Positions 26,843 to 53,486 are shown, counted from the stretch's first letter. The stretch: DNA of 64,000 nucleotides from an uncultured Flavobacteriales bacterium (GCA_905480125.1 CAJQPE010000076.1:3306-67305); one strand, 5' to 3'. The notes: a model not told the origin generated them from the letters alone. A program made the numbers and translations.

Positions 26843-26844
26843 TC

Positions 26845-27630: not shown

Positions 27631-27653
27631 TCGCAATTTTTAAAAAAACTTAA

Positions 27654-29315
<1,662 letters not shown>

Positions 29316-29336
29316 GCGTATTAATTATAATACTTT

Positions 29337-29367
29337 AAAGCCCTACTCTCAAAAGAGTGGGGCTTTT
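29337..29367 (+). terminator. Rho-independent terminator of groESL
   Basis: AAAGCCCTACTCT-CAAA-AGAGTGGGGCTTT followed by T. Confidence 0.85.
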
Positions 29368-29408
29368 AGTTTCCAAAAAAAATTACCTTTAGCTTTGCAA
29401 AATAACCC

Positions 29409-30275: not shown

Positions 30276-30316
30276 ATCCTTGCCTCGTTAAAGCAATAGA
30301 GTATTTAAGCTATGTT

Positions 30317-30751: not shown

Positions 30752-30859
30752 AATAGAATTGCAAGTTTAAAGGTTAAAGTCTAAAGAAATTAGAACTATT
30801 GAAATATTTCAGTATCAGCTTTACGTTTCCCTTTGCGCTTTTTACTTTATCACCTCTAC

Positions 30860-30891
30860 CTTATCAACAAAAAATAACACTTATCAACAAA
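30860..30891 (+). repeat. Direct repeat CTTATCAACAAA x2 (20-nt period), DnaA-box-like, upstream of purH
   Basis: Copies at 30860-30871 and 30880-30891; TTATCAACA differs by one base from TTATCCACA. Confidence 0.5.
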
Positions 30892-30964
30892 GCGTTTCTC
30901 AAGGTAAAACGAACCTTTAATATCGTTAAAATTGCATGTTATAGACATTTAGAAACCCAATAGA

Positions 30965-32485
30965 GTGATTAAAATTAAAAACGCATTAGTTTCTGTATTT
31001 TACAAGGATAACCTTGAACCGATAATTCAAAAACTGAATGAACTCGGTGTGAAAATATACTCTACCGGAGGTACTCAGAAATTTATTGAATCTAAAGGTG
31101 TAGCTGTTACACCTGTTGAAAAACTTACTTCGTACCCTTCTATTTTAGGTGGAAGGGTAAAAACATTACATCCAAAAGTATTTGGCGGTATCTTGGCCAG
31201 AAGAGAATTAGATAGTGATCGAGAGCAATTAGCAGAATATGAAATTCCTGAATTGGATTTAGTGATTGTAGACCTCTACCCATTCGAAGAAACAGTTTCA
31301 TCTGATGCTAGCGAGCAAGATATTATTGAAAAAATTGACATAGGTGGCATCTCCTTGATTCGCGCAGCTGCTAAAAACTTCAAAGATGTAACTATCATTT
31401 CATCAAAAAATCAGTACGAAGTTCTTTTAGAAATTTTGACTGCAAAAGAAGGGGTTACAACTATTTCTGAACGTAAGAAATTTGCAACAGAAGCATTCAA
31501 TATTTCATCGCATTACGATAGTGCGATTTTTAATTATTTCTGTGATAGAGATGCCCATGCTTTTAAGTCTAGTATTCAGAATTCTCAAGTCTTGAGATAC
31601 GGAGAAAACCCACATCAAAAAGGTGTTTTCTATGGTAATCTCAATGAAATGTTTGAGAAGCTTCACGGTAAAGAATTATCTTACAACAACCTTTTAGATA
31701 TTGACGCTGCGGTTAATTTGATAGATGAATTTAATACCGATAAACCAACATTCGCTGTTCTAAAACATAATAATGCTTGTGGCCTTGCAACTCGCGATAC
31801 ATTAGTGGATGCATGGAAAGATGCCTTAGCTGGTGACCCAACTTCTGCTTTTGGCGGAATTTTAATAACCAATAAAACAATAGACAAAGCAACCGCTGAG
31901 GAAGTAAACAAGTTATTCTGTGAAGTTGTCATTTCAACTGGCTATGATACAGATGCAGAAGAGATTCTAAAGTCTAAAAAAAACCGAGTGCTTCTAAAAA
32001 GAAAAAAAGCTTCACTTCCAGCTAAGCAATTCAGAACTATTTTGAATGGTGTATTAGAGCAAGACAAAGACTTAAAAGTTGAAACCTCAGCTGATTTGAC
32101 AACCGTAACCATTAAAGAACCTACTGAAAGCGAAATTGCAGATATGCTCTTCGCTAATAAACTAGTAAAGCATACTAAGTCTAACACTATTGTTTTTGCA
32201 AGAAACAACCAGTTATTGTCAAGTGGAACTGGACAAACATCGCGAGTTGATGCACTAAATCAAGCAATTGAAAAAGCCAATAAATTTGGATTCGATCTAA
32301 AAGGTGCCTCAATGGCTTCTGATGCATTTTTTCCTTTTCCAGATTGTGTAGAAATAGCCGACAAAGTTGGAATAACTGCAGTTATTCAGCCCGGAGGATC
32401 AATTAAAGATCAGCAGTCGATTGACTACTGCAACAACAACAATCTTGCTATGGTTCTTACAGGAACTCGACATTTTAAACATTAA
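30965..32485 (+). CDS. purH: Bifunctional AICAR transformylase / IMP cyclohydrolase
   Basis: STGGT, GGRVKTLHP, IDIGGISL.RAAAKN, LRYGENPHQ, ASDAFFPF, TGTRHFKH; GTG start. Confidence 0.97.
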   Translation: MIKIKNALVSVFYKDNLEPIIQKLNELGVKIYSTGGTQKFIESKGVAVTPVEKLTSYPSILGGRVKTLHPKVFGGILARRELDSDREQLAEYEIPELDLVIVDLYPFEETVSSDASEQDIIEKIDIGGISLIRAAAKNFKDVTIISSKNQYEVLLEILTAKEGVTTISERKKFATEAFNISSHYDSAIFNYFCDRDAHAFKSSIQNSQVLRYGENPHQKGVFYGNLNEMFEKLHGKELSYNNLLDIDAAVNLIDEFNTDKPTFAVLKHNNACGLATRDTLVDAWKDALAGDPTSAFGGILITNKTIDKATAEEVNKLFCEVVISTGYDTDAEEILKSKKNRVLLKRKKASLPAKQFRTILNGVLEQDKDLKVETSADLTTVTIKEPTESEIADMLFANKLVKHTKSNTIVFARNNQLLSSGTGQTSRVDALNQAIEKANKFGFDLKGASMASDAFFPFPDCVEIADKVGITAVIQPGGSIKDQQSIDYCNNNNLAMVLTGTRHFKH

Positions 32486-38402: not shown

Positions 38403-39044
38403 TTAGAGTTTTTCTTCTAACTGACTGAGAGTAAAAGTTCGGAACCGAACAAAATAATAAGCTGGAAATATATAGAGAGCTATAGCTATAGTGTAGGTAC
38501 TAAAAGTAAGCCCCAATTGAGGAATAAAAAGGAATCCGAATAAAAAAGTCGTAATAATGCCACCAAGAGTAGATATAGAATAAATGGTACCCACAGAATT
38601 ACCCACTTCCTTTACTTCCCTAGAAATCAGCTGTATAATAAGCGGTGAAACCATTCCAAAACACACCAAAGGAGGAAATACAAAGCAGAGGCTTGAAATA
38701 ACAATACCCAGTTTTAGATTCATCCCCAGCGTTGCAGTCATTATCATTGAGGATGTAAAAGGCATGATTGTAACGAAAATTGCTGAGGCTAAAATTATAT
38801 AATGTAAAATAAGTTTATGGGGATACTTTTCTGAAATTACCCCACCTAGAAGATATCCAGTAGTAAGACCTCCCATAGTAACAGCCAAGGTTGTGGCCCA
38901 GACATACAAAGAAGCCCCATATGAAGGTGCTATAAGTTTAGCACCTAATAATTCAACGGCCATTACGGCACCTCCTTCGATTATTGATATGGATATTAGG
39001 TACCAGAAAGATGTGGGATATTTACTTTTTCTATTTAGATTCAT
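38403..39044 (-). CDS. Stand-alone 6-TM membrane domain of the fused MFS/spermidine-synthase family
   Basis: EGGAVMAVELLGAKLIAPSYGASLYVW, GYLLGG, GTIYSISTLGG; clearly paralogous to the N-terminal part of the upstream gene. Confidence 0.8.
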   Translation of the reverse strand: MNLNRKSKYPTSFWYLISISIIEGGAVMAVELLGAKLIAPSYGASLYVWATTLAVTMGGLTTGYLLGGVISEKYPHKLILHYIILASAIFVTIMPFTSSMIMTATLGMNLKLGIVISSLCFVFPPLVCFGMVSPLIIQLISREVKEVGNSVGTIYSISTLGGIITTFLFGFLFIPQLGLTFSTYTIAIALYIFPAYYFVRFRTFTLSQLEEKL

Positions 39045-39052
39045 TGTTTCAA

Positions 39053-40708
39053 TTATTTAAACAGCCGTACCCCTTCTTCTAAGCTCTTGTTTGTAGTGTT
39101 ATCAATCATGTTAGTTCGCCACTCTACTATCGATTTAAGATTTATATGCTCCAAAATAGGAAGATCATCAGTAAAAACAATAGCATCGCCTTTTCCCACA
39201 TTATTTTCCAACCCTCTATTACCAAGCAATAAATCCTGAACAAAGCCTTCGACTATACAACAATTATTGATTCTGTTTCCATCAAATGCAATATCAGGAA
39301 CATCAACAGAACCAATAATAATAAAATCACAGGGACTATCAGGTTCGCAATTTTCTACATGAAATACGGTATTGGAAAAACCGGCTGCTTTCAATGTTGC
39401 GACAATTGAACGGAATGGCAAACCTTCTACTTCATCAAAATGACCTTGGAAGTTAACTAGCAAAAGCCCTCCGGGTTTTAATATCTTTAAGGCTTCTTCA
39501 AAGCTTTCTTTGGTTAGAACATATGGCGGTTGTACCTCTCCTTTGAGCATATCGAAAACGATGACATCATATTTCTTAGTTGTAGTTTTTAAATAATGTC
39601 TGGCATCATCAATTATAAAATTCGTGTTCTTAGAATCGAATAAAAAATAATCTTTAGATAATTGATACATGCGTTTATCTATTTCGATTGCATCTATATT
39701 CAAGTCCAGTCGTGTTAATTCACTTGCTACGCTTCCTCCGCCAAAACCTAATAATAAAATGTCACTTCCAATTGGCTTAGTTGAGCATATAGTTGAAATC
39801 ATGTGAACATAATACCAATATGAATAGCCGTTAGCGGAATTCACAAATGTTTGCGGAATAGCATTTACCAACATAGAGCGATCTGTCACTTCTACATCCG
39901 GATAATACTCATCGAGCACTCTTAACTGACCCAATAATCCTTCACTTTCATAGCGGATATTATATTTACTCGAATTAACCGAATTATGAATATTTGACTT
40001 GTAAACAGAATTAGATTCAAAAAGAAAAATCACTGCGATAACAATGATAAAAATCATTCTCGAATTGCGATACAACAATAATGCAGTCGTAATTAACAAT
40101 ACCCCTGAAACAAACATATTAGGGACGGTAATACCATATTCCTCAATGATGAAAAATCCAAGAAGAAATGTCATGAAAATACCCCCAATAGTAGATATCG
40201 AGTATACAAACCCAGCATTTTTTCCAGATTTTTTTACGTCTGCTGTTGCCAATAAAATAATTACAGGCGAAGTGCTACCCAAGAATACAAGAGGAAATCC
40301 AAATAGCAAAACAGCGGATAATACCGCACCAACATAGAAGTTAAAATCACCTGTAAATTTTAGAATAGTATGGGCAATGATGGGCATAAACCCAATCAGT
40401 ACCCCGCTAACCATTAATTGCACAAAAACTAAATTTTGCGGTTTATACTTCATGGATAATCGCCCACCCAAATAGTACCCAACGGTAAGACACAATAGAG
40501 TAATACCTATTACTGTAGTCCAAACAATGAGTGATGAGCCATAATAAGGCGTCATCATCTTTGCCCCAACTAATTCCACCGCCATTACAGTGGCCCCTTC
40601 AACAAAAGCTAGTAAAAAATATGGCCAGATAGATGTATGCTCATATTGTGAGGCTGAAGAAGATTTGGTGCTAATGACTCTAATACTATTCGATTTCTTC
40701 TTCCCCAC
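39053..40708 (-). CDS. Fused MFS-like membrane domain / spermidine-synthase-like SAM-dependent transferase
   Basis: Seven TM helices, then LLLGFGGGS, DAIEID, DDARHYL, YDVIVFD, LKPGGLLLVN. GTG start at 40708 chosen because a -7 element TAATTTTG (40754-40761) overlaps the track start. Confidence 0.85.
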   Translation of the reverse strand: MGKKKSNSIRVISTKSSSASQYEHTSIWPYFLLAFVEGATVMAVELVGAKMMTPYYGSSLIVWTTVIGITLLCLTVGYYLGGRLSMKYKPQNLVFVQLMVSGVLIGFMPIIAHTILKFTGDFNFYVGAVLSAVLLFGFPLVFLGSTSPVIILLATADVKKSGKNAGFVYSISTIGGIFMTFLLGFFIIEEYGITVPNMFVSGVLLITTALLLYRNSRMIFIIVIAVIFLFESNSVYKSNIHNSVNSSKYNIRYESEGLLGQLRVLDEYYPDVEVTDRSMLVNAIPQTFVNSANGYSYWYYVHMISTICSTKPIGSDILLLGFGGGSVASELTRLDLNIDAIEIDKRMYQLSKDYFLFDSKNTNFIIDDARHYLKTTTKKYDVIVFDMLKGEVQPPYVLTKESFEEALKILKPGGLLLVNFQGHFDEVEGLPFRSIVATLKAAGFSNTVFHVENCEPDSPCDFIIIGSVDVPDIAFDGNRINNCCIVEGFVQDLLLGNRGLENNVGKGDAIVFTDDLPILEHINLKSIVEWRTNMIDNTTNKSLEEGVRLFK

Positions 40709-41066
40709 TTTTTTATATATTAAGATGCAATTTAAATAGATTTTTAATGCTATCAAAATTAGTTGTCAATAAAACCAAGGCCTGGAATTTTACCTCGAAA
40801 AAAATAGTTTTACATGAACAAGTATTTCTGATAAGAATATTATTAAAGCTCATGAAAAATTGGAATGCATAGGAAATTAAAATAGGAAGATTACTAATTT
40901 AACTGATTAAAATATAAAATTGAATGGTCTAGCAAATTATTTACCCCTCAAAAAATATCAACACCTTTGTCAAACAAAACCTAAACTGCATTAAAACAAA
41001 GCAAGTGATTCGTTAAGGCCAAAATGAAATATTTGGCGATGAATTGAATGATAATTTTAGAATGTT

Positions 41067-41504
41067 ATGGACTATATTAAGTTAGGGCTACTTTTTTCCG
41101 CGTTTGGATGTTTTTTTGAGGTGATTTTCACAGCAGCTTATGATAGTGTCGAACAATATATCAAAGAGGGTAAAAAAAAAGTTGATGTGCGATTCTATGG
41201 GTACTGGAGTTTTTTATACATACTTGTTTATGGCATTGCCCTGCCCGCCTTTTGGATACTTATAGCTGTTCCATTTATATATCCTCTTTATTGGGGGCTG
41301 CGGGGGCTGATATATGGGGTCTCTTTCCATATTGGGGAATACATCTGCATGTATATATTACACCTTATTTTCGGGCAATCCCCATCTGAAGGGCATTATA
41401 AAGGCAAATATGATTCCATTAATAATTTTATCCGACTTAGCTATTTTCCAATTTTTATAATTGAAGCTTTTGCCTTTGAAAAGGTATACGAATGGTTCAT
41501 TTAA
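41067..41504 (+). CDS. TMEM229 / putative ABC-permease-like small membrane protein
   Basis: GCFFEVIFTA, G.WS...VYG, LRGLIY, GEY, IRLSYFP resemble the TMEM229 pattern as recalled. Confidence 0.6.
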   Translation: MDYIKLGLLFSAFGCFFEVIFTAAYDSVEQYIKEGKKKVDVRFYGYWSFLYILVYGIALPAFWILIAVPFIYPLYWGLRGLIYGVSFHIGEYICMYILHLIFGQSPSEGHYKGKYDSINNFIRLSYFPIFIIEAFAFEKVYEWFI

Positions 41505-41598
41505 ACGAAAGCCCCTGAACAAAATAACGATTACGAAAAGAAATTAAAATACCGACTAAACCTCACGGAGTGTTTTAATTTTAATATTTTTTCAACCA

Positions 41599-42777
41599 TT
41601 ATTCGAAAGCAGGAATACCTGTTATATCCATTCCGGTAATTAACAGGTGAATATCATACGTGCCTTCATAAGTAATTACCGATTCTAAATTTGCCATATG
41701 GCGCATCATTGGGTACTCGTTAGAAATTCCCATAGCACCGTGCATTTGTCTCGCTTCGCGAGCAATTCTTAATGCCATATCAACATTATTACGTTTCGCC
41801 ATAGAAATTTGAGAGGAAGTCGCTTTATCATCATTTTTAAGTTGACCTAATCTAAAAGTCAATAATTGTGCTTTTGTAATTTCAGTAATCATTTCAGCTA
41901 ATTTCTTTTGCTGTAATTGGAAACTACCAATTGGTTTTCCAAACTGAATACGCTCTTTAGAATAACGTAAAGCAGCGTCATAGCAATCAAGTGCGGCACC
42001 GATTGCCCCCCAAGCAATTCCATAACGAGCAGAATCTAAACATTGAAGTGGAGCACCTAAACCATCTTTATTGGGTAATATATTTTCTTTAGGAACTTTA
42101 ACATTATTAAAAATTAGCTCCCCTGTAGAAGATGCCCTAAGGGAATGTTTTCCATGCATTTCAGGCGTTTCGAATCCTTCCATACCTCTTTCGACAATAA
42201 GCCCCTTTATTCTTCCCTCATCATTTTTTGCCCATACCACAGCGCAGTCCGCAAATGGAGCGTTAGATATCCACATTTTAGCCCCATTAAGAATGTAGTG
42301 ATCTCCAGCATCTTTAATGTTAGTAACCATTCCTCCTGGATTAGAACCAAAATCTGGCTCTGTTAACCCGAAACATCCAATAATCTCACCTGTTGCTAAC
42401 TTTGGTAAATATTTTTGTTTCTGCTCTTCGCTCCCAAATTTCCAAATTGGGTACATGACCAAAGAGCTTTGAACAGATGAAGTAGAGCGCAAGCCAGAAT
42501 CGCATCTCTCCAATTCTTGCATAATTAAACCGTAAGAAATCTGGTCTAAACCTGGTCCTCCATATTCTTCTGGTATATAAGGTCCGAAACCCCCAATTGC
42601 ACCTAAGCCCGGAATAATTTGCTTAGGAAATTCAGCTCTTTCATAATAGTCTTCTATTATGGGGCTAACCTCTTGCTTTACCCATGCCCTCGCTGAGTCT
42701 CGTATAAGTTTATGTTCATCACTAAGCAAATCATCCATCAAATAATAATCATGTGCTTCGTATCTATCGTCTGCCAT
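41599..42777 (-). CDS. gcdH: Glutaryl-CoA dehydrogenase family acyl-CoA dehydrogenase
   Basis: YGLIMQELERCDSGLRS, CFGLTEPDFGSNPGGM, LRASSTG, ARYGIAWGA, TYEGTYDIH; -7 element TATTTTTG at 42796-42803. Confidence 0.88.
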   Translation of the reverse strand: MADDRYEAHDYYLMDDLLSDEHKLIRDSARAWVKQEVSPIIEDYYERAEFPKQIIPGLGAIGGFGPYIPEEYGGPGLDQISYGLIMQELERCDSGLRSTSSVQSSLVMYPIWKFGSEEQKQKYLPKLATGEIIGCFGLTEPDFGSNPGGMVTNIKDAGDHYILNGAKMWISNAPFADCAVVWAKNDEGRIKGLIVERGMEGFETPEMHGKHSLRASSTGELIFNNVKVPKENILPNKDGLGAPLQCLDSARYGIAWGAIGAALDCYDAALRYSKERIQFGKPIGSFQLQQKKLAEMITEITKAQLLTFRLGQLKNDDKATSSQISMAKRNNVDMALRIAREARQMHGAMGISNEYPMMRHMANLESVITYEGTYDIHLLITGMDITGIPAFE

Positions 42778-42876
42778 TTGTTCTATTTTGGGGAGCAAAA
42801 ATAGCAAATAAGTTTCGTTCGAAGCTCAAACAAGTTTGTCTTAGCAAGTATTTTAGTTGAAATTATTTTAGTTTGT

Positions 42877-42884
42877 TATATTTG
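42877..42884 (+). promoter_or_regulatory. Sigma-A -7 element TATATTTG for the Reeler-cytochrome-YceI-DUF5777 operon
   Basis: Exact TAnnTTTG match 21 nt upstream of ATG 42906. Confidence 0.55.
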
Positions 42885-42905
42885 AGCTATAAAATCTTAA
42901 CTATT

Positions 42906-43694
42906 ATGAAAAAAACAGTACTTTCTATATTCGCATTAGCCGTATTCGCAATAATTTTAACATCTAGTTCTGGGGGTCGTACAGATGGGAGATCAGGATC
43001 TCCTGGTGATGCAAACCTAGATTGTGGACAATGTCATGGCGCTTCAACAGCTTCATCAACAAGCATGATAACAACTGACATCCCTGCTTCAGGTTATGTT
43101 GGCGGAAGCACATATAACGTTACTGTTTCCGTTGCAGAAACAGGCGCGAGCATGTTTGGATTTCAAATTACCGCAGAGCACTCTTCGAACGCGAAAGCAG
43201 GTACATTTGCTACAGGTGGAAACAGTGAGATTTATACCGTTACTGCTGACCACGCAGTTACTCATAATACATCAGGCACATTTGGCACTGATTCAAAAAG
43301 TTGGACCATGACCTGGACTGCACCATCTTCTGGTTCGGGCGATGTTACTTTTTATGTTGCCGGAAACGGTGCTAATGGCACGGGTGATGCAACAGGAGAT
43401 GTGATTTACACAGATTCACAAGCTGCTGCTGAAGATGTTGCCAATGGTATTGCGATAAATGAATTTGCTAATGCAGATGTAAATATTTATCCAAATCCTA
43501 CGTCCGACTACTTTACCATTAAAGGAGTTGACAAAAGGGCAACTATTACTTTATTTGACCTTAAAGGTTTTGAAGTAAAAAGCTTTGCAAATTCTGTAAA
43601 TCAATTTGACGTTTCGGATATAGAGCGAGGTACGTATCTATTATATATAAATATTGATGGTGCACCAACCCTTGAAAAGCTGATTATACAGTAA
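42906..43694 (+). CDS. Reeler-like (choice-of-anchor V) protein with CxxCH motif and T9SS type A sorting domain
   Basis: Signal peptide; GSPGD...CGQCH; Y..G.TY.VTV, FGFQITA, WTAP..GSG.VTFY.AGN; CTD IYPNP...G.Y...KLII. Confidence 0.82.
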   Translation: MKKTVLSIFALAVFAIILTSSSGGRTDGRSGSPGDANLDCGQCHGASTASSTSMITTDIPASGYVGGSTYNVTVSVAETGASMFGFQITAEHSSNAKAGTFATGGNSEIYTVTADHAVTHNTSGTFGTDSKSWTMTWTAPSSGSGDVTFYVAGNGANGTGDATGDVIYTDSQAAAEDVANGIAINEFANADVNIYPNPTSDYFTIKGVDKRATITLFDLKGFEVKSFANSVNQFDVSDIERGTYLLYINIDGAPTLEKLIIQ

Positions 43695-43710
43695 GTTAAA
43701 TTTACTTAAT

Positions 43711-44112
43711 ATGGGAAAGAGACTAATTGTACCTGTTGCTTTCTGCTTCATGATATTGTTCTCCTGTACTGCAGACAAATTGGAGCTTGAACCGCCTCCT
43801 ATTGTAATAATTGATACTGGAGGAGTTACCGACACTACAACTATAGACACAACAGGTTCAGATACGTGCAAATATTTAACCCATATTCAGCCCATTATTA
43901 ATCAAAATTGTGCATTTGCAGGTTGTCATTCAACTGGATTCGGCTCTGGCGATTTCACTGCTTACTCTGGCTTATTTGCCAAAATTGATAATGGCGGGCC
44001 ATTTGAAAATCGAGTGTTAATTCTTCAAGATATGCCTCCTGGCGGACCTCTTTCGGTATCCGACAGAGACTTGATACAATGTTGGCTCGATAATGGTGCA
44101 ACAAACAACTAA
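43711..44112 (+). CDS. Lipoprotein with planctomycete-type monoheme cytochrome c-like domain (CX4CH)
   Basis: Lipobox LFSC; IQPII..NCAFAGCH ... MPP...LS...I.CW...GA. Confidence 0.75.
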   Translation: MGKRLIVPVAFCFMILFSCTADKLELEPPPIVIIDTGGVTDTTTIDTTGSDTCKYLTHIQPIINQNCAFAGCHSTGFGSGDFTAYSGLFAKIDNGGPFENRVLILQDMPPGGPLSVSDRDLIQCWLDNGATNN

Positions 44113-44122
44113 AAATTAAATT

Positions 44123-44668
44123 ATGAAAACTATTCTAGCGATTTTATCATTTTCAATGGTAACTTTTTCAATTTCAGCTCAAGACCTATATGCGGTTACA
44201 GAATCTGAGATCCAATTTTATTCTGATTCGCCTTTGGAAAAAATTGAAGCCATTAACAAAAAAACGAAATCATTTTTCAAAATATCTACTAAAACATTAA
44301 TGTTTGTTATTCCTGTAATTTCGTTCAAATTTGAAAAGCCTTTAATGGAAGAGCACTTCAATGAAAATTATCTTGAGACTGAGAAATTTCCTACTGCTAA
44401 ATTCTCAGGGACAATTAATGAAGAACTCGACTACACAAAAAACGGAACTTATGATGCATCTGCAACTGGAAAACTAACAATCCACGGAGTTGAGCAAGAA
44501 AGATCAATTAATGGAACCATTACCGTAAAAGATAGTCAGTTAATTTTCGAAGGAAAGTTCCAAATTAAGCTTAAAGATCATGATATTGATATCCCATCCA
44601 TTGTTGTGAAAAATATTGCTGAAGTGGTTGATGTAACCGCTAAATTGGTTTACGAACCAAAAAAATAA
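44123..44668 (+). CDS. YceI family periplasmic polyisoprenoid-binding protein
   Basis: Signal peptide; F.S..PLE.IEA, LMEEHFNENYLET.KFP.A.F.G, GKLTIHGV. Confidence 0.9.
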   Translation: MKTILAILSFSMVTFSISAQDLYAVTESEIQFYSDSPLEKIEAINKKTKSFFKISTKTLMFVIPVISFKFEKPLMEEHFNENYLETEKFPTAKFSGTINEELDYTKNGTYDASATGKLTIHGVEQERSINGTITVKDSQLIFEGKFQIKLKDHDIDIPSIVVKNIAEVVDVTAKLVYEPKK

Positions 44669-44679
44669 ACATTTCATAT

Positions 44680-45603
44680 ATGTTGAAGATAAATTGTCTT
44701 TTAGCTTTCTTTCTTATTGCTTTTTCTCTGGTTTCATTTTCCCAGGATGATCTCATGGACATGTTAGAAGCCGAAGCGACCGAAGAATTAGGTAACGAAA
44801 AAGTACAAGCAACCTTTAAAACTCAGAGACTAATCAATTTACATTCTAATGAAACCGTAAAAAAAAAGACATTAGATTTTAGGGTTACGCATCGGTTTGG
44901 GAGTGTTGGACTATATAAAGCCCACGATTTATTCGGAATGGACAATGTAAACGATATTCGTATTTCTTTCGATTATGGAATTACTGAAAACTTGCAGGTA
45001 GGAATAGCTCGTAGTAAAAGACAAGAATTAATTGATGGGAGCTTTAAATTTAGACCTTTAACTCAAACAACAAACAATAAAATTCCCTTTTCTTTAGTCT
45101 TGCTTGGTCAAGTTGGTTTCACTCCTCAAAAAGATCCAGATAGCCTTTATTTAAAAACTGCGCATAGATTTAATTATACCTACCAACTTATAATTGCTCG
45201 GAAATTTGGGCCTAGTGTTTCTCTTGAAATTGCTCCTACTTTAACGCACCGAAACATTATTAGACGTTACGTTAATCCTGAAAATGAAGCAGAAGAACAA
45301 AACACAATATTTGCTTTAGGAGCAGGCGGTAGATTTAAAATCACGCAGCGTACTGCTATTTTAATCGACTACTTCTATGTTTTCTCACAATACAGGCAAA
45401 ATAATACAGCGACACCATTCTATAATCCGCTTGGTATTGGTATAGAAATAGAAACTGGCGGCCACGTATTTCATTTAGTTGCTACTAACGCAGCAGGTAT
45501 TGTTGCAGGGAATTATCTTCCCTACAATAATGAATCATGGAGAGGTTTAGGAATCAAAACAGGTTTTAATATTTCTCGAGTATTCAATGTAGGAAAACGG
45601 TAG
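44680..45603 (+). CDS. DUF5777 family outer-membrane beta-barrel protein
   Basis: Signal peptide; TFK..RLIN, DFRVTHRFG, LFGMD, IETGGHVF.L..TN, GFNISRVF. Confidence 0.82.
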   Translation: MLKINCLLAFFLIAFSLVSFSQDDLMDMLEAEATEELGNEKVQATFKTQRLINLHSNETVKKKTLDFRVTHRFGSVGLYKAHDLFGMDNVNDIRISFDYGITENLQVGIARSKRQELIDGSFKFRPLTQTTNNKIPFSLVLLGQVGFTPQKDPDSLYLKTAHRFNYTYQLIIARKFGPSVSLEIAPTLTHRNIIRRYVNPENEAEEQNTIFALGAGGRFKITQRTAILIDYFYVFSQYRQNNTATPFYNPLGIGIEIETGGHVFHLVATNAAGIVAGNYLPYNNESWRGLGIKTGFNISRVFNVGKR

Positions 45604-45612
45604 TTTTAAATC

Positions 45613-46326
45613 GTGAGTTTCGAACCGACATTTACTTCTAAAACTAGCTCAGAAGCTGTTATTATATATCACTCTTCTTCTATTGCTACTAATAATATTG
45701 CAATCATAATTATCTTGTTTACCATTTCTCTGATTGGGGTTGTTATAGCTACAGATAAAAACAAAATACGTTTAGTCTTCGAAGCTATTGTGAGTAATAG
45801 AAGTATGAACCAAAGCTTTAAGGACAAAACTGCTTTTGTCAGCAAGAGCACCTTAATACTTTTCGTGAATTACGTACTATGCTTTTCAATGCTCGTGTTT
45901 GCAGCAAATAACAAATACTTTTTTATCTCATGGAACTCATCAAAACTTATTCTCACTAGTTGCGGAATTATTATTGCACTATTTGTGATTAAGCGGGGTT
46001 CCATTCTATTCTTTGGAAAATTATCGGGGTTAAAAAATGAAGTTCAGGAATACCTATTTAATCATACCATTTTCACATTAGCAGCTGGAGTTTCTATAAT
46101 TCCGCTCCTTATCATCGTGAATTTTATTGATGTACATAGTCAGATAGTCATACAGTCTTCATTTGTATTTGTACTTCTTTTTATGATACTAAGACTTGTA
46201 AAATCGGCCACAACAGCAATTAAGCATAAAGTCGGTAGTTTATTCTACTTATTTTTGTACATTTGCACCCTTGAAATTTTACCGCTAGTCATCCTATACA
46301 AAGCTTTTCCAAGTAAAATAGGCTGA
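45613..46326 (+). CDS. DUF4271 family membrane protein
   Basis: Multi-TM, C-terminal YLFLYICTLEILP; sits directly before hemD. Confidence 0.78.
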   Translation: MSFEPTFTSKTSSEAVIIYHSSSIATNNIAIIIILFTISLIGVVIATDKNKIRLVFEAIVSNRSMNQSFKDKTAFVSKSTLILFVNYVLCFSMLVFAANNKYFFISWNSSKLILTSCGIIIALFVIKRGSILFFGKLSGLKNEVQEYLFNHTIFTLAAGVSIIPLLIIVNFIDVHSQIVIQSSFVFVLLFMILRLVKSATTAIKHKVGSLFYLFLYICTLEILPLVILYKAFPSKIG

Positions 46327-46379
46327 TTAAAGAGTGATTTCATTAAAATTCAAATATTAACTACCAAATTGGGGTATAG

Positions 46380-47132
46380 ATGAGTAAGGTAAAATCAATT
46401 TTAGTTTCTCAACCAAAACCAGAATCAGAAAGATCGCCTTATTTTGATTTAGCTGATAAACACAATCTAAAAATTGACTTCAGGCCTTTTATTCATGTAG
46501 AGGGAATTGGAGCGCAAGAATTTCGAAAAACTAGGATCAACATCCTCAAGCATGGTGCTGTAATTTTTACCAGTCGAAATGCTGTTGACCATTATTTTAG
46601 AATAGCAGAGGAGATGAGAGTAAGTATTCCTAGCACCATGAAATACTTTTGTTTGTCTGAATCTACTGCATTTTATTTACAGAAATACGTAGTATTTAGA
46701 AAACGGAAAATTTTTCACGGAAAAACAACTTTTAAGGACTTGTTGGATGTAATGAAAAAGCATAAAGATGAAAATTTTATTTTTCCTTGTTCTGATATTT
46801 TAAAAGCAGAGTATCCAAAATTACTAGAAGAAAATGGATTTAAATATTCAAAAGCAACCCTTTATAGGACCGTGTGCAGTGATCTTTCAGACTTAGCTGA
46901 AATAAAGTACGATATGCTTGTGTTTTTTAGTCCTTCTGGTATAAAATCATTATTCCAAAATTTTCCGCAGTTTGTGCAAAATGGAACTAAAATTGCGGCA
47001 TTTGGATCTACTACAACTAAAGCAGTTGAGCACCATGGACTTAGTTTAAATGTTCAAGCACCAACGCCTGAAACACCATCTATGACAATGGCTATTGAAA
47101 GGTTCATTAAGGCCTCTAACAAAAAGAAATAG
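46380..47132 (+). CDS. hemD: Uroporphyrinogen-III synthase (Bacteroidota type)
   Basis: ILVSQPKP..SPY, IDFRPFIHVEG, IFTSRNAVDHYF, LYRTVCSDLSDL, VFFSPSGI. Confidence 0.88.
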   Translation: MSKVKSILVSQPKPESERSPYFDLADKHNLKIDFRPFIHVEGIGAQEFRKTRINILKHGAVIFTSRNAVDHYFRIAEEMRVSIPSTMKYFCLSESTAFYLQKYVVFRKRKIFHGKTTFKDLLDVMKKHKDENFIFPCSDILKAEYPKLLEENGFKYSKATLYRTVCSDLSDLAEIKYDMLVFFSPSGIKSLFQNFPQFVQNGTKIAAFGSTTTKAVEHHGLSLNVQAPTPETPSMTMAIERFIKASNKKK

Positions 47133-47190
47133 ACTGAGAAAGGTAACGACTCGGTTACAATTCAGCTCCGCTCTACTCAATGCAATAGCA

Positions 47191-47604
47191 GTGACATCTA
47201 GTTTCAACAAAAGAGAAAAACTATCTAGCACAAAGGCTACTGAGTTTCTTTTCAATAATGGAAACTCATTTACCGAGTTTCCATTTCGAATCATTCATTC
47301 ACTTTATGAAATAGAAAGTGAATATCCCGTTCAGGTATTAATTACTGTCCCTAAAAAAAGATTCAATAAAGCAGTTGACCGAAACCGAATCAAAAGGCAA
47401 ATATCTGCGGCTTATCGGCTATCTAAATCTGAACTTTACAAAAACATTAGCAAGCTAAATCAAACATTAACAATTGCAATAGTTTACACAAGCTCAAAGC
47501 AAGAATCCTACGACAAAATCTGCTCTAAAATAATTTTATCTTTACAACGTTTAGCAAAGGCATACGAGCAAAAAAATGAGTTGGATTTTGATACAAATAA
47601 TTAA
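47191..47604 (+). CDS. rnpA: Ribonuclease P protein component
   Basis: [31 protein letters not shown] (RNR motif). GTG start at 47191 avoids the overlap with hemD. Confidence 0.9.
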
Positions 47605-47785
47605 GTTTTATCAAGCTGCCCTGTCACCGCTTCTTCCTGCTACTTGCCGCTATACGCCAACTTGCTCTGAATATGGTATTCAGGCAATTAAAAAACATGG
47701 CACATTAAAAGGATTATATTTAACAATTAAAAGAATCGGATCTTGTCACCCTTTTGGAGGTAATGGATATGATCCTGTTCCATAA
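47576..47785 (+). CDS. yidD: Membrane protein insertion efficiency factor YidD
   Basis: [34 protein letters not shown]. Confidence 0.95.
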
Positions 47786-47794
47786 ATAATTATA

Positions 47795-49462
47795 ATGAAA
47801 AGAATAAAACTTTTACTAATAATTGCTATAACTGCAGTTATCTCTATAGTATCATTCAATTTTACCGATGGTTATTTCGAGCACTCTAAAAACATAGATA
47901 TTTTCACTACCCTATATGGAAAATTAAATGTTTACTATGTTGATGATACTGAGCCAGGAAAATTGATGAAAACTGGTATCGATGCGATGCTCAAATCACT
48001 CGATCCATATACGGTTTACTACCCAGAATCTGATATTGAAGATTACCGATTTATGACTACTGGTCAATATGGCGGAATCGGCTCATTGATTACTAAAAAA
48101 GATAGTTTTGTAGTCATTTCTGAACCTTACGAAGGTTTTGCTGCACAAAAAGGAGGACTAATGGCAGGAGATGTTATCATAGAAGTTGACGGAAAATCAA
48201 CGCTTAACAAAACCACTAGTGAACTCAGTAAAATTTTAAAAGGAGAACCAGGCACTATGCTAGTCATGAAAATTCAAAGACCTGGGACAGAAGATATTCT
48301 TACTAAAGAAATAGTAAGAGAAGAAGTTACACTCGATGCGGTGCCTTATTTCGGGATGCTTGAAAACAACATTGGATACATCAAACTAAATACATTTACA
48401 GAAACTGCTAGCAGGGATGTAAAAGCTGCATTTAACACCTTAAAGGACTCTTTAGGAATGGAAACATTGGTTTTTGATCTAAGGGGAAACGGAGGAGGGT
48501 TACTTATAGAAGCGGTAGAAATTGTTAATATTTTTGTGCCCAAAGGTCAAGAAGTTGTCACCACAAGAGGTAAGATTACCGATTGGAATAAAACTTATAA
48601 TACACGAAATTCTCCTCTTGACGCCGAAATTCCATTAATTGTCTTAATTGATCCTTACTCAGCTTCTGCATCGGAAATTGTTTCGGGCACGCTGCAAGAT
48701 CTGGACAGAGCGGTAATTATTGGTCAAAATTCTTTCGGGAAAGGCCTTGTTCAGCAAACGATGCCCCTCAGCTATAACTCGAAACTTAAAGTAACTGTTG
48801 CCAAATACTATACCCCGAGTGGAAGATGTATTCAGCGATTAGACTATAATGACAAAGATGAGAAAGGAAAAGCAAAAGAAGTTGCTGATTCATCTATAAC
48901 TCAATTCGAAACTGTTAACGGAAGACCTGTTTTTGATGGAGCAGGCATTGAACCCGACCTTAAAGTAGAAGTAAATGAGTTGCCTCAAATTATTGGTAGT
49001 TTATTACGAAATACAATATTCTTTGATTATGCAACTAATTACAGGCTATCCCATGATTCGATTATTCCTGCTAAATTATTTTCTCTTTCAGATGAGGAAT
49101 ATAATGAATTTGTGAACTACACTAAATCAAAAGATTTTGAACATGAAACTCAAACGGAAAGAATTCTTGACGGGCTAAAAGAAGTTGCAAAAAACGAAAA
49201 ATGTACTGAAGCCACGATGAAACAAATTGAAGTATTAGAGAAGCAATTGGCTGCAGAAAAAGACAATGACATCATTAAGCATAAAAAAGAGCTGGAGCTC
49301 ATTTTAAGAAACGAAATAGTATCCCGATACTATTACCAGGCTGGGAGAATTGAGGCCAACTTAACTTCCGATGAGGAAATAAAAAAGGCGTTTGAAGTAT
49401 TATCAGATACAAGCATGTATAGGACTATTCTAAACGGCAGTTTTATGCCTGTAGCTGAGTAA
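47795..49462 (+). CDS. S41 family C-terminal processing peptidase (PDZ)
   Basis: LDPYT, GGIG, DLRGNGGGLL, SASASEIVSG, SFGKGLVQ, YYTPSGRCIQ. Confidence 0.93.
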   Translation: MKRIKLLLIIAITAVISIVSFNFTDGYFEHSKNIDIFTTLYGKLNVYYVDDTEPGKLMKTGIDAMLKSLDPYTVYYPESDIEDYRFMTTGQYGGIGSLITKKDSFVVISEPYEGFAAQKGGLMAGDVIIEVDGKSTLNKTTSELSKILKGEPGTMLVMKIQRPGTEDILTKEIVREEVTLDAVPYFGMLENNIGYIKLNTFTETASRDVKAAFNTLKDSLGMETLVFDLRGNGGGLLIEAVEIVNIFVPKGQEVVTTRGKITDWNKTYNTRNSPLDAEIPLIVLIDPYSASASEIVSGTLQDLDRAVIIGQNSFGKGLVQQTMPLSYNSKLKVTVAKYYTPSGRCIQRLDYNDKDEKGKAKEVADSSITQFETVNGRPVFDGAGIEPDLKVEVNELPQIIGSLLRNTIFFDYATNYRLSHDSIIPAKLFSLSDEEYNEFVNYTKSKDFEHETQTERILDGLKEVAKNEKCTEATMKQIEVLEKQLAAEKDNDIIKHKKELELILRNEIVSRYYYQAGRIEANLTSDEEIKKAFEVLSDTSMYRTILNGSFMPVAE

Positions 49463-49465: not shown

Positions 49466-51034
49466 ATGTTCTCGGCGGGTTTTCATCGTTTAATATACCT
49501 TGTAGGTATAGCTATGTTATTAGTGGGTATGCCTTTAAGCCCTGCGATGATGAGTATTTCGCAATTCATATTACTCATAAACTGGATAGCGGAAGCAAAC
49601 TATAAAACAAAATTAGATACTCTAAAGCAAAACAAAAGCGTTCTGATGGTGCTCGGGTTATTTGCTCTGCATTTAATTTGGCTATTTAATACAACAGACT
49701 TTGTTTACGGGTTAAGTGATATAAAATTGAAGCTTCCACTGCTTATTATTCCATTTGTTTTAGGATCCGCAATCAAAATTTCAACTCAAGAATTAAATCG
49801 ATTTTTACTTCTTTTCATTAGTGGAATTATTGTGGCAAGCATCTGTTGCATATTCAAACTTTGGGGATGGATTGGGGAACCTATTGATGATATTAGAAAA
49901 ATGTCTTTTATCATTTCTCACATTCGTTTTGGGCTGATGATTTCATTGGCCATTTTTGCATCAGCTTTCTTAGTCATAAAAGGGGATTATCAACTCACTA
50001 GTAAATTTTTGCTTGGAACAGTTATATTGTGGCTATTGCTTTTCCTTATTATTATGAGCGCAATGACAGCCTTGTTAATTACCGGATTAATTAGTATCGG
50101 TGGAGTTATTATTGTCGCAAAAAAGAAAAGCTCAATTGCTGTTTTTACAGGAATATCAATTGCCTGTATATTTTCAATTGTTGGCTTTTTGTATTGGACT
50201 TCTTATCTCTACAATAAACAGTTCTCCTTGGTTGAAGAAGCAGACATCAGTAAGCTAGACAAAAAAACTGCTGAGGGAAATAATTACTATCACTCTCCTA
50301 ACTCTATTTCGATTGAAAATGGAATGTATGTCTACCACCATATTTGCGAAAATGAAATCGCAGAGTCATGGAAAATCAGATCTTCAATTCCTTGGAATGG
50401 AAAAAATACAAAAGGAAAAAATATTCAAGGTGCAATGTATCGATTCTTAACATCTAAGGGTTTGAGAAAAGACAAAGCAGGTATTAATGCACTTTCTGCT
50501 GAAGAAATCACCGCGATAGAAAATGGTGTAACCAGTATTGACCTCTTCAACAAAAGTGCTCTGTTTAAAAGAATTCACCAAACTATATGGGAATTGGGCA
50601 ATTATCGAATGGGTATTCCTGCAGGAGGAAACTCATTAACACAGCGTTTCGAATTTTGGAAAGCTGCACTAATTATTAGTAAAGAAAATTTGTTTTTTGG
50701 TGTAGGCACAGGTGATGTTAAACAAGCCTACATAGATCTCTACAACAAAGATGATTTTGGTCTAGGAACCAAATACCGCAAAAGAGCACACAACCAATAC
50801 CTTACGTTTTTAGTGACATTTGGACTATTTGGTTTTGCGTTCTTTCTTGTTTCTATAATTTATCCGTTTATGATAAAACAACATCCGCTATTTTATGTTT
50901 TTATAGCAATTGTACTCATTTCTTTCCTTAACGAAGACACATTAGAAAGCCAAGCAGGCGCAACTTTTTTTGCAGGGTTTTATGGATTGTTGTTAAGTGG
51001 GCGAGCAATCACTCCCAAAAATACACCCGTTTAA
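49466..51034 (+). CDS. O-antigen ligase (WaaL/Wzy_C) family membrane protein
   Basis: Multi-TM; SHIRF, S...R.EFWK, FGVGTGD, AHNQYL. Confidence 0.8.
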   Translation: MFSAGFHRLIYLVGIAMLLVGMPLSPAMMSISQFILLINWIAEANYKTKLDTLKQNKSVLMVLGLFALHLIWLFNTTDFVYGLSDIKLKLPLLIIPFVLGSAIKISTQELNRFLLLFISGIIVASICCIFKLWGWIGEPIDDIRKMSFIISHIRFGLMISLAIFASAFLVIKGDYQLTSKFLLGTVILWLLLFLIIMSAMTALLITGLISIGGVIIVAKKKSSIAVFTGISIACIFSIVGFLYWTSYLYNKQFSLVEEADISKLDKKTAEGNNYYHSPNSISIENGMYVYHHICENEIAESWKIRSSIPWNGKNTKGKNIQGAMYRFLTSKGLRKDKAGINALSAEEITAIENGVTSIDLFNKSALFKRIHQTIWELGNYRMGIPAGGNSLTQRFEFWKAALIISKENLFFGVGTGDVKQAYIDLYNKDDFGLGTKYRKRAHNQYLTFLVTFGLFGFAFFLVSIIYPFMIKQHPLFYVFIAIVLISFLNEDTLESQAGATFFAGFYGLLLSGRAITPKNTPV

Positions 51035-53486
51035 CACGCTGCGAAATACTAGTTAATACTTCGTAAGGTATTGTATCTAGATCTATAGCTATATTGAGAA
51101 GAGAGTAATTTGGATCACCAAATATCACAACAGTATCACCTTCCTTACAATCAATACTTGACACATCGAGCATACACATGTCCATGCAGACATCACCAAC
51201 CACGGTTGCTGATGTTCCATTAACAATCATGTAACCATTTCCGTTTCCTAAGCTTCTCGAATACCCATCTGCATAGCCAATCGCGACAGTTGCTATTCTC
51301 ATGTTTTGGTCTGCAATTCCAGAACGATTGTAGCCTACAGTTTCGCCCTTTTTAACATTTCGTATTTGAGAAATACTAGACTTCAAAGTCCCTACTTGCT
51401 CTATGTTTCTTTGTGCTTTTGGAGTTGCGCCTATTCCATGAATTCCTATTCCTATTCGAACCATATCGTATTGTGAATCAGGAAATCTCTCAACACCAGA
51501 AGAGTTTAAAATATGCCTATCAAATTGATAAGACAAACTCGTTTCAATGCTTAGCGCCATTGCATCAAACTTGGAAAGCTGAGACATAGTGTACTCGTCA
51601 TGTTTTTTATATCCACTTCCAACTAAATGAGAAAATACCGATTGAACTTTAATAAGCGTATTATTCTCTAATACAGCTAGAAGAGCTAATAGTTCTTCCT
51701 CTTCAAAACCCAAGCGCCGCATTCCTGTATCCAACTTAATATGTATAGGGAAAACAGAGCCATCAGAAAGCAAACTTGTCTTGAGAATTCCAATGAAGTC
51801 ATTCAATAATTCTAAATTATATATTTCTGGTTCCAGCTCATATTTTATCATAGAATGAAATGCCTCCCTCTCAGGATTCATAACCATAATTGGAATCTTA
51901 ATTCCAGCTTTTCTAAGAGCAACACCTTCATCAGCATAAGCCACACCTAAATAATCCACATTGTTAAATTGCATGATACTAGCAATTTCATGAGTTCCGC
52001 TACCGTAAGAAAAGGCTTTGACCATTACCATAACTTTAGTTGATGGTTTTAGCAATGAACGGTAATAATTGAGGTTGTTTTGAATGGCCGTTAGATTAAT
52101 TTCCAAAACCGTTTCATGACTTTTCTGCTCGAGTGCCCTACTAATTTTTTCGAATTGAAATTGCCTAGATCCTTTAATCAAGATAGCCTCATTTTCAAAT
52201 TGAAGCGCGTGTAATTCTGCTAAAACATGTTCAGTTGATTCGAAAAAATGTGCATCCATCAACTCAAAACAATCTTGATTCTGTAACAGCTGATTACCTA
52301 CACCAATGATTCGCTCAATATTTTTAGATTTTACTAGCTGAGCAATTTCCTTATATAACGCACTCGAGACTTGACCAGATTCGTATATATCAGATAAAAT
52401 TAAAGCCTTCTTCGAATGCTGATGCTGTTGATTCAGTAAATCCAGAGCGATGCCCAAAGACGCAATATCAGAATTATATGAATCATTGATTAGTGTGTTT
52501 CCGTTTATTCCCGCCTTTAACTCTAATCGCATAGTTACGGCAACTAACCCAATCATCCGTTCAGCTATTAAGGAATTTTTATACCCATTTTCTAGTAGGT
52601 AAAGCCAACAATGAATTGCATTTTCTATTGAAGCGTTATCGGTAAACGGAATTTCAATTTTTATTTCATTTTTTGCATAAATTGCATCTATTTTGCTGTT
52701 TTTTCCTGTTTTTTTAACTTTTTTGACATAAAAGTCACATTTTTCATCATTTACCGACCATGAAATTTTCTTAATATTTGCAAGTTTTGAAACACCATGT
52801 GCTATCTCCGTATAATCAGAACAATAAAAAATACGCTCAGCATCCTTAGCTAAGGAAAGTTTCTCTTTTGCTTTATCAAATCTGTCTGTAAAATTTTCGT
52901 CATGTGCCTCATGTATATTCGTCAGGATAACGTCATTTGGTCTAATAATTTTCTCCAACAAGACCATCTCTCCAACTTTTGAAATCCCTGCTTCAATCAA
53001 GGCTAATTCATTATCTTTACTCATCTTCCATACTGAAAGAGGAACTCCAATTTGGGAATTGTAACTCTTTGGGCTTCTAACCACATTTAGATCGGCTTGA
53101 AGTAATTGAAACAACCATTCTTTAACAACCGTTTTCCCGTTACTTCCTGTAATACCGATAAGGGAATAATTAAACTTTTGCCGATGAATCTTTGCAACTT
53201 CTTGCAATGCAACTAATGTATCGCTAACTATAACTTGGCAACAATCATTAGGTAATTCGAGTTCTCTAGAAACCAAAAAACTTTTAAAACCTCGCTGAAC
53301 TAACTGACCAACATATTTGTGCCCGTCATGCTGATCGCCAATAATGGCAATGAAAAGTGCTGTACTTGGTTCAACTACTCTTCTGCTATCGATAAGCAAT
53401 ACACTAATATGGTTTACACTTGATGGGCCAACTATTTTTCCATTAACTAACTTGGCAATGGATGCAATATGATAGGAAACATCCAT
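51009..53486 (-). CDS. alr: Bifunctional MurF-like ligase / alanine racemase
   Basis: GITGSNGKT, SYNSQIGVP, INDSYNSD, then VMVKAFSYGSG (PLP lysine), HIKLDTGMRRLG, GYADG, CMDM, TIPYE. Confidence 0.93.
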   Translation of the reverse strand: MDVSYHIASIAKLVNGKIVGPSSVNHISVLLIDSRRVVEPSTALFIAIIGDQHDGHKYVGQLVQRGFKSFLVSRELELPNDCCQVIVSDTLVALQEVAKIHRQKFNYSLIGITGSNGKTVVKEWLFQLLQADLNVVRSPKSYNSQIGVPLSVWKMSKDNELALIEAGISKVGEMVLLEKIIRPNDVILTNIHEAHDENFTDRFDKAKEKLSLAKDAERIFYCSDYTEIAHGVSKLANIKKISWSVNDEKCDFYVKKVKKTGKNSKIDAIYAKNEIKIEIPFTDNASIENAIHCWLYLLENGYKNSLIAERMIGLVAVTMRLELKAGINGNTLINDSYNSDIASLGIALDLLNQQHQHSKKALILSDIYESGQVSSALYKEIAQLVKSKNIERIIGVGNQLLQNQDCFELMDAHFFESTEHVLAELHALQFENEAILIKGSRQFQFEKISRALEQKSHETVLEINLTAIQNNLNYYRSLLKPSTKVMVMVKAFSYGSGTHEIASIMQFNNVDYLGVAYADEGVALRKAGIKIPIMVMNPEREAFHSMIKYELEPEIYNLELLNDFIGILKTSLLSDGSVFPIHIKLDTGMRRLGFEEEELLALLAVLENNTLIKVQSVFSHLVGSGYKKHDEYTMSQLSKFDAMALSIETSLSYQFDRHILNSSGVERFPDSQYDMVRIGIGIHGIGATPKAQRNIEQVGTLKSSISQIRNVKKGETVGYNRSGIADQNMRIATVAIGYADGYSRSLGNGNGYMIVNGTSATVVGDVCMDMCMLDVSSIDCKEGDTVVIFGDPNYSLLNIAIDLDTIPYEVLTSISQRVKRVYFWE

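Follow-up and report, generated by a model that had tools for sequence, protein, structure and literature searches.

Four tightly spaced genes, referred to here as P1 to P4, that lie in a 64,000-nucleotide stretch of DNA from an uncultured Flavobacteriales bacterium (GCA_905480125.1 CAJQPE010000076.1:3306-67305; “the window” below means this whole stretch) form a unit conserved across Bacteroidota, and encode, in this order, a Reeler-domain protein with a type IX secretion system (T9SS) sorting domain, a lipoprotein with a cytochrome-c-like domain, a YceI-family protein and a DUF5777 outer-membrane beta-barrel (Table 1). The cluster is real and widely conserved, and no description of it was found in the literature searched. 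The reading preferred here, tentatively and at somewhat less than even confidence, is that it represents an envelope redox module of Bacteroidota, centred on YceI and built on the outer membrane, in which the known theme of YceI plus cytochrome would recur with new partners, namely the DUF5777 barrel, the CXnCH lipoproteins and a T9SS-exported putative heme-Reeler protein.

The evidence that carries this reading comes from a comparison of loci encoding the barrel. A barrel profile run against species-representative genomes found at least 565 such loci, the best 80 of which were examined; all named loci among these 80 belong to Bacteroidota. With P4, the barrels of the 80 share 43-56% identity, except for that of locus L001 (92%). 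The open reading frames (ORFs) of these loci were labelled by iterated profiles built from the window proteins, and the counts given below are limited to loci with enough flanking sequence. In 70 of 77 loci, the barrel gene is directly preceded by that for YceI, the median gap between the two being 6 nt in the relatives, and the slot that precedes YceI (or the barrel) is filled in 58 of 72, by a cytochrome-like protein in 53 and by a cupredoxin in 5; once the Rieske protein of L044 is added, redox lipoproteins are found in 59 of the 72. The Pontibacter loci L059 and L066 are among those with cytochrome, YceI and barrel genes. The cupredoxins are lipoproteins of the plastocyanin/azurin family, all five of which pass the PF00127 cut-off, and they carry the H...C...H...M copper ligands; the leader of the Rieske lipoprotein has a TAT_signal match that falls below the cut-off. 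No other observation speaks as strongly for a role in electron transfer as the presence of three unrelated families of one-electron carriers in one and the same slot.

A quick maximum-likelihood tree built from the barrel sequences requires four changes in the cupredoxin state, and at least three of these are forced by well-supported branches, so the carrier swap happened repeatedly; as this is an unrooted gene tree, it shows that the swaps recurred and not in which direction they went. A role of these genes in electron transfer had been put forward in an earlier note on this DNA, made from the sequence of the window alone, and both this role and the co-occurrence of the genes across genomes fare well in the light of the neighbourhood analysis (YceI next to the barrel, a redox lipoprotein next to them) and of the replacement of the slot protein by a cupredoxin (five loci) or a Rieske protein (one locus).

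The same note had described the genes themselves, and here its account holds throughout: all four ORFs are present as described, with gaps of 16, 10 and 11 nt, the CGQCH of P1 and the CAFAGCH and distal MPP Met of P2 are found in the translations, all four products carry export signals, and the YceI and DUF5777 identities are borne out by family models. P1, P2 and P4 have so many relatives (88 for P1, 2013 cluster representatives for P2 and 2481 for P4) that they are real genes and not chance ORFs.

The most constant part of the unit is the pair formed by P3 and P4. P3 matches YceI (PF04264) at 60.8 bits (cut-off 23.7), and its profile matches the solved YceI structures 5ixg (6.7e-5), 1y0g (8.5e-5) and 5w2x, the first of which is presumably BcnA, the name of its Protein Data Bank (PDB) entry saying only YceI; members of this family are binders of isoprenoid quinones and polyisoprenoids. 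P4 matches DUF5777 (PF19089) at 283.3 bits (cut-off 23.1), and its AlphaFold model (pLDDT 71.5) is a closed 12-strand barrel preceded by a conserved N-terminal helix or segment. Foldseek returned only outer-membrane barrels for it (FapF, OmpG, a COG4313 channel and NanC; TM 0.43-0.62), matches so generic that no function can be read from them, and the P4 profile had 0 matches among PDB sequences. Over 78 orthologues, P4 keeps 19 invariant positions, including H71, D88, R111, N192, R218, E256 and T259-G-G-H262, which seems a high degree of invariance for an outer-membrane barrel. Literature searches found no paper on DUF5777 and nothing relevant on YceI together with Flavobacterium; the one paper found on YceI together with cytochrome c and the outer membrane in Bacteroidetes has an RNA-seq table for iron-limited Riemerella that lists a YceI-like gene, possibly an orthologue, at 1.16, the passage giving no column heading for the figure.

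A complex prediction for mature P4 and mature P3, both run as own alignments, so that the calibration counts hold roughly, gave a score of 0.44, the best of three controls reaching 0.11, with at least 85% contact agreement between runs and partner pLDDT values of at least 81. The pass mark of this test is met by 58 of 80 solved complexes and by 2 of 110 mismatched pairs, and a passing score of 0.60 or below is found for just 7 of the 80 solved complexes, yet for both of the passing mismatches. The model thus raises the odds of P3 docking on P4 a little and no more, which counts as weak support for the earlier proposal.

P2 would be the electron carrier of the local version of the module. Its lipobox cysteine is Cys19, its domain spans approximately residues 50-133, with M108-P109-P110 in the translation, and it carries CX4CH rather than the canonical CXXCH heme-attachment motif. 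A word-index search with P2 gave just 7 close relatives, and an exhaustive search was used instead, which found 2013 related cluster representatives at E<=1e-3. Across 44 sequences of this family, C19, C67, C72, H73, M108, P109, W125 and G129 are invariant, so that all of them keep a proximal His behind the second Cys as well as a distal Met. The domain, of about 80 residues, occurs singly in lipoproteins of about 120 aa or as tandem copies, with up to 5 CXnCH motifs counted and up to 8 matched stretches per protein; the 260 motifs of the 150 best relatives have spacers of n=2 in 91 cases, n=3 in 2, n=4 in 149, n=5 in 15 and n=6 in 3, and among the orthologues in the same gene slot the spacer ranges from 2 to about 9.

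The CX2CH relatives of P2 match the Cytochrome_CBB3, Cytochrom_C, PSCyt1 and PccH models (e.g., the slot protein of L010 matches Cytochrome_CBB3 at 67.7 bits, and P0149 matches PSCyt1 at 88.9 bits). Against the PDB, single sequences of P2 and P3 gave nothing useful and profiles were needed; the P2 profile matches a CxxCH-bearing segment of the hydrazine synthase alpha chain (8.6e-4), PccH (3.2e-3), FoxE (0.028) and small c551/c5 cytochromes. An Atlas search, taken as a lead only and not used as evidence, returned Bacteroidota clusters and one cluster containing PSCyt1. P2 shares with PSCyt1, class I cytochromes c and PccH the layout hydrophobic-P-I-x3-C...CH...M-P...W-[IL]-x2-G-A, and differs from them in its CX4CH, in having no model match of its own and in the variable spacer of its family. 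By its sequence, P2 is therefore assigned a cytochrome-c-like domain, albeit one whose attachment motif is non-canonical, and covalent attachment of heme at the Cys motifs of both P1 and P2 is plausible. Many P2 orthologues also keep a second Cys pair, with C-D-T/S near the start of the domain and C-W near its end, which in P2 (C53 and C124; 43765-44082) could form a disulfide clamping the domain. In one Flavobacteriales clade (L010 6574-7440, L015, L018, L029 and L035), the slot cytochrome has 2-3 tandem CX2CH domains. A surface-export signal was considered for P2 and its orthologues as well, but the residues after the lipobox (e.g., CTADK, CTFEKGE, CKKEVFD) were not decisive, and no orientation is called.

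P1, which has a signal peptide at its N-terminus, matches the NCBIfam choice-of-anchor V family (NF041895) at 106.9 bits (cut-off 42) and the Pfam Reeler family (PF02014) at 38 bits (cut-off 21), and its C-terminus (~194-262) is a T9SS sorting domain (PF18962, 47.7 bits, cut-off 27; TIGR04183, 35.2 bits). In its structure model (pLDDT 89.4), the N-domain is a Reeler beta-sandwich, matched best in the PDB by the reeler domain of F-spondin (2zot; target-normalised TM 0.65, 21% identity); the profile search found Spondin-1 (3.5e-5), plus T9SS C-terminal domains, and the N-domain is a true Reeler homologue. It differs from the Reelers of F-spondin and of FRRS1/SDR2 in its N-terminal CXnCH site and its T9SS sorting domain. 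Invariant in the N-domain over 36 aligned relatives are P33, C40, C43, H44, Y70, G85, F86, G99, W137 and P140, and an N-terminal CXnCH is present in 87 of 88 relatives (n=2 in 80, n=3 in 2 and n=4 in 5); neither a conserved Met nor a second His was seen in these relatives, so that no distal ligand can be named. Reeler domains are present in the eukaryotic ferric-chelate reductases FRRS1/SDR2, and no eukaryotic Reeler domain is known to us to bear heme c. A literature search on Reeler domains, heme and bacteria found tick and insect work only and no paper on a bacterial heme-Reeler, and one on choice-of-anchor proteins had nothing on type V among the matches listed. Export of P1 is possible, as T9SS/gliding core genes lie in the same window. 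The gene for the choice-of-anchor-V/Reeler protein is present in 16 of 56 loci, where it always immediately precedes the cytochrome gene, and the barrel tree implies at least 8 gains or losses of it; found in just these 16 loci, P1 counts as an accessory rather than as an indispensable terminus of the chain proposed in the earlier note.

If these parts do work together, the module might operate as follows. The invariant core would be the soluble periplasmic YceI-type lipocalin P3 and the 12-strand barrel P4, at which the lipocalin would dock, and YceI would keep a lipid of the menaquinone type on the periplasmic side of the outer membrane. A one-electron lipoprotein carrier (P2 here, a cupredoxin or a Rieske protein elsewhere) would exchange single electrons with the ligand of YceI, the barrel offering the lipocalin a route to the lipids of the outer membrane or to the surface, and the purpose of the whole may be the quenching of lipid radicals or some other redox service of the outer membrane and the surface. 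Where it is present, i.e., in a minority of loci, this one included, the surface heme-Reeler protein P1 would extend the chain outward. Of all this, the genes, their conservation, the carrier swaps and the folds are established here; heme attachment, the quinone ligand, docking, the direction of electron flow and the antioxidant or surface-redox purpose are inferred. A bolder version, which is considered unlikely, would make the 12-strand barrel a new kind of outer-membrane redox gate that needs no multi-heme wires: menaquinol, or some other lipid-soluble carrier, would be delivered by YceI into the barrel, where invariant His, Glu and Arg residues (H71, E256, H262 and others) would bind the carrier or a cofactor, the periplasmic side would be served by the lineage's own lipoprotein (cytochrome c, cupredoxin or Rieske), and reducing equivalents would cross to heme-Reeler proteins or to lipids of the outer leaflet.

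The closest characterised systems are BcnA/LcoA and Cbp2D/E, neither of which the earlier note had named. In Burkholderia and many Proteobacteria, the gene for a YceI lipocalin, bcnA, occurs linked or fused to that for a cytochrome b561, lcoA; mutants show raised membrane lipid peroxidation, and in the model proposed for Burkholderia cenocepacia the cytochrome re-reduces a quinone bound to the lipocalin, by which lipid peroxyl radicals are quenched (PMC9113575). The present cluster likewise couples a secreted YceI-family lipocalin genetically to a cytochrome (5ixg being the best PDB match of the P3 profile); it differs in having an outer-membrane barrel and a lipoprotein c-type cytochrome, cupredoxin or Rieske protein instead of an inner-membrane b561, and in the addition of a candidate T9SS surface hemoprotein. 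No b561 family match was found in the cluster or among 44 further window ORFs (E<=1e-5; all but one of at least 150 aa), so that the linkage of YceI to b561 is not seen here. Cbp2D/E of Cellvibrio japonicus and relatives are secreted proteins that combine a YceI-like, UQ-8-binding X158 domain with c-type cytochrome domains and are proposed as electron donors (PMC8981238, PMC12542752). Unlike these large multidomain proteins, which bear CBM2 modules and are linked to the action of cellulose and lytic polysaccharide monooxygenases, the cluster consists of separate small genes, not of a single polypeptide, and includes an outer-membrane barrel; no carbohydrate-binding module matched in the cluster proteins.

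Few bacterial proteins whose role is unclear are as widespread as those of the YceI family, and the mechanistic models for them are solely cytochrome-coupled (by b561 in Proteobacteria, by fused c-type domains in Cellvibrio); the cluster would represent the same YceI-cytochrome logic in Bacteroidota, executed with different parts. It would also provide a first functional context for DUF5777, a family with thousands of members, for the CXnCH lipoproteins and for bacterial heme-Reeler T9SS cargo. The natural swaps between cytochrome, cupredoxin and Rieske proteins yield a testable prediction, that of electron transfer at the outer membrane, and there may be some relevance to oxidative-stress tolerance, surface enzyme chemistry and the ecology of marine or soil Bacteroidota.

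Several observations weigh against the interpretation as a redox module. Of the DUF5777 loci, at least 565 in number, the sample comprises the 80 closest, and more distant members may differ; even within it, the slot holds no redox gene in 13 of 72 loci, and five loci have a cytochrome and the barrel without YceI, so that there is no obligatory three-part stoichiometry. Confidence in the barrel model is moderate and its structural matches are generic, and the support for a P3-P4 complex is weak by the tool's own calibration. P2 itself matches no Pfam family at E<=0.1, and the Cys spacing is unfixed in both putative heme families, which is unusual for orthologous c-type cytochromes and leaves a disulfide-plus-His arrangement or a metal site possible. 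No cytochrome c biogenesis family was found among the 44 further window ORFs (E<=1e-5), the cluster contains neither a quinone-reducing enzyme nor a b561, and no experiment on any of its members was found in the literature searched.

How much room these points leave for other explanations depends on the explanation. The trafficking of a lipid or another hydrophobic molecule, with the barrel as a channel, YceI as the periplasmic carrier and a redox lipoprotein that either modifies the cargo or is loosely associated, is a possibility, if a less likely one; its cargo might be a quinone, a carotenoid or flexirubin-type pigment, a fatty compound or a lipophilic toxin, which covers the uptake of a hydrophobic redox cofactor as well. 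Such a function would agree with YceI and the barrel being the invariant pair (70 of 77) while 13 of 72 loci lack the redox gene, with the resemblance of the barrel model to channels of 12 to 14 strands (among them an outer-membrane channel of P. putida, COG4313), with the weak support for a YceI-barrel complex (0.44 against 0.11 for the best control, on a rough calibration), and with the binding of polyisoprenoids by YceI proteins and of hydrophobic antibiotics by BcnA (PMC9113575; see also PMC5350466). It leaves unexplained, however, why three unrelated kinds of one-electron carrier should be found in the slot and why five loci should have the cytochrome and the barrel without YceI, and the Foldseek matches on which the channel comparison draws are generic. 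That the genes have no joint function at all, being mere neighbours whose Cys motifs are structural disulfides or metal sites, is hardly credible: variable Cys spacing and the lack of a Pfam match for P2 would suit it, yet the genes stay adjacent across several orders although their proteins are just ~45-55% identical, the P2 family has an invariant His and Met-Pro, P2 is homologous to real cytochromes, and the slot is refilled with cupredoxin or Rieske proteins.

The earlier note had gone further than a redox module and had pictured a conduit across the outer membrane, in which quinol from YceI reduces a lipoprotein cytochrome at the barrel, and this in turn a heme-Reeler protein that serves iron, metals or surface enzymes. 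Porin-cytochrome conduits (MtrAB/C, Geobacter Pcc) have barrels of at least 20 strands that sheathe multi-heme cytochromes. The cluster is like them in that an outer-membrane barrel gene adjoins candidates for periplasmic and surface c-type cytochromes, export signals would put all four parts in different envelope layers, the P1 gene, in the 16 loci that have it, always precedes the cytochrome gene directly, and Reeler domains do occur in ferric-chelate reductases. Nevertheless, a conduit appears doubtful at best, as the modelled 12-strand barrel is too small to enclose an 80-residue cytochrome domain, so that the porin-cytochrome analogy fails, no multi-heme protein is encoded in the cluster (P1 and P2 have one CXnCH each), and P1 is absent from 40 of 56 loci, with its at least eight changes on the tree. 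His/Met mono-heme cytochromes, cupredoxins and Rieske proteins are, moreover, typically high-potential carriers, usually acceptors and not Fe(III) reductases, which disfavours the metal or iron reduction proposed in the note, an argument from family knowledge and not from measurement.

The opposite direction, in which the carriers would take electrons from Fe(II), Cu(I) or other reduced species through a polar barrel lined with His, Glu and Arg, in a chain like Cyc2/rusticyanin or of the FoxE type, would fit the weak matches of the P2 profile to FoxE (0.028) and PccH (0.0032), the barrel invariants H71, D88, R111, E256 and H262, and the interchange of cytochrome and cupredoxin that is, as far as family knowledge goes, typical of such chains; it is still quite improbable, the PDB matches being marginal, YceI, the most constant partner (70 of 77), being given no role, and neither an oxidase nor a metal transporter having been seen in the conserved neighbourhood. 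Even less should be expected of a tetrapyrrole link, i.e., a role of the cluster in the trafficking of heme or porphyrins, or its co-regulation with the synthesis of heme, which we regard as very unlikely. It has in its favour that DUF4271 and hemD follow directly downstream in 37 of 69 loci, and that L016 encodes a HemC-HemD fusion (519 aa) and HemB (4825-7354) directly upstream of YceI-barrel-DUF4271-hemD, heme-synthesis genes thus lying on both sides of the YceI-barrel pair. The DUF4271 gene, however, wherever it directly follows the barrel, comes with hemD, and the downstream block also holds rnpA (38 loci), a gene for an S41 peptidase (33) and one for a Wzy_C protein (22), ordered as they are in the window, neighbours that were found by unbiased clustering of flanking ORFs and Pfam checks; as DUF4271-hemD travels with these genes, the arrangement, whose run-on into DUF4271-hemD the earlier note had mentioned, looks like a long housekeeping synteny and is weak evidence of a link to heme. 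In addition, DUF4271-hemD was not seen downstream in four of the five cupredoxin loci and in the Rieske locus, and neither a TonB-dependent receptor nor a heme-binding family was seen; by its gene context, DUF4271 is probably not part of the module.

Table 1. Coordinates of the cluster, of its motifs and neighbours in the window, and of the cupredoxin and Rieske genes in related loci (positions numbered within each locus).
Feature	Position	Strand	Description
TATATTTG (TAnnTTTG)	42877-42884	+	Bacteroidota-type -7 promoter-like motif; 22 nt before P1 ATG
P1	42906-43694	+	262 aa; Reeler/choice-of-anchor-V and T9SS type A sorting domain
CGQCH of P1 (C40-G-Q-C43-H44)	43023-43037	+	candidate covalent heme site
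P2	43711-44112	+	133 aa; lipoprotein, predicted class-I/PSCyt1-like cytochrome c domain
CAFAGCH of P2 (C67-AFAG-C72-H73)	43909-43929	+	CX4CH; from translation
P3	44123-44668	+	181 aa; YceI family, lipocalin-like, signal peptidase I type leader
P4	44680-45603	+	307 aa; DUF5777 outer-membrane beta-barrel
DUF4271 membrane protein	45613-46326	+	97.1 bits; starts 9 nt past P4
hemD (uroporphyrinogen-III synthase)	46380-47132	+	HEM4 117.7 bits; starts 53 nt past DUF4271
GldN	12940-13788	-	T9SS/gliding core
GldM	13809-15491	-	T9SS/gliding core
GldL	15530-16375	-	T9SS/gliding core
GldK-like, FGE-sulfatase family	16429-17760	-	T9SS/gliding core
PorP/SprF	17856-18797	-	T9SS/gliding core
Cupredoxin slot gene, L005	541-975
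Cupredoxin slot gene, L011	6987-7412
Cupredoxin slot gene, L014	7033-7440
Cupredoxin slot gene, L037	6934-7335
Cupredoxin slot gene, L048	6994-7401
Rieske lipoprotein slot gene, L044	6892-7317		51.4 bits, cut-off 20.3; twin-arginine-type leader

As regards transcription, the single TAnnTTTG promoter that the earlier note had placed before the four genes survives in part: the motif does lie just 5' of P1, but TAnnTTTG occurs in the window at chance frequency (85 found against 92.1 expected), so that for TATATTTG only its position counts. No further copy was found on the + strand between 43209 and 46250, which fits a single transcript running through P4 and DUF4271, and the copies at 46250 and 46258, just 5' of hemD, could be a promoter of its own for that gene. 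Scans of 41400-47800 for sigma-70 promoters (20 found against 23.8 expected) and for terminators (4 against 4.3) stayed at chance level, and the window as a whole gave no match in scans for Rfam families and tRNAs. Upstream of P1 lies an acyl-CoA dehydrogenase gene in divergent orientation.

Around the related loci, a polyprenyl synthetase gene within approximately 2.5 kb upstream in 17 of 80 (e.g., L017 4460-5434) is a weak hint of isoprenoid-quinone metabolism, and may reflect synteny only. A lipoprotein of ~150 aa with MORN-variant repeats is encoded immediately upstream of the carrier slot in 13 loci (e.g., L011 6496-6945).

Elsewhere in the window, an 825-aa ORF (51009-53486, - strand) encodes Mur ligase domains and, in the same polypeptide, a complete alanine racemase. 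No ORF of at least 150 aa and no Rfam or tRNA match was found at 26842-27666 and 29315-30965. Two adjacent membrane proteins encoded at 38403-40756 (- strand) are alike in their N-terminal regions; the shorter (213 aa) has no Pfam match, and the longer (567 aa) ends in a spermine/spermidine synthase-like domain.

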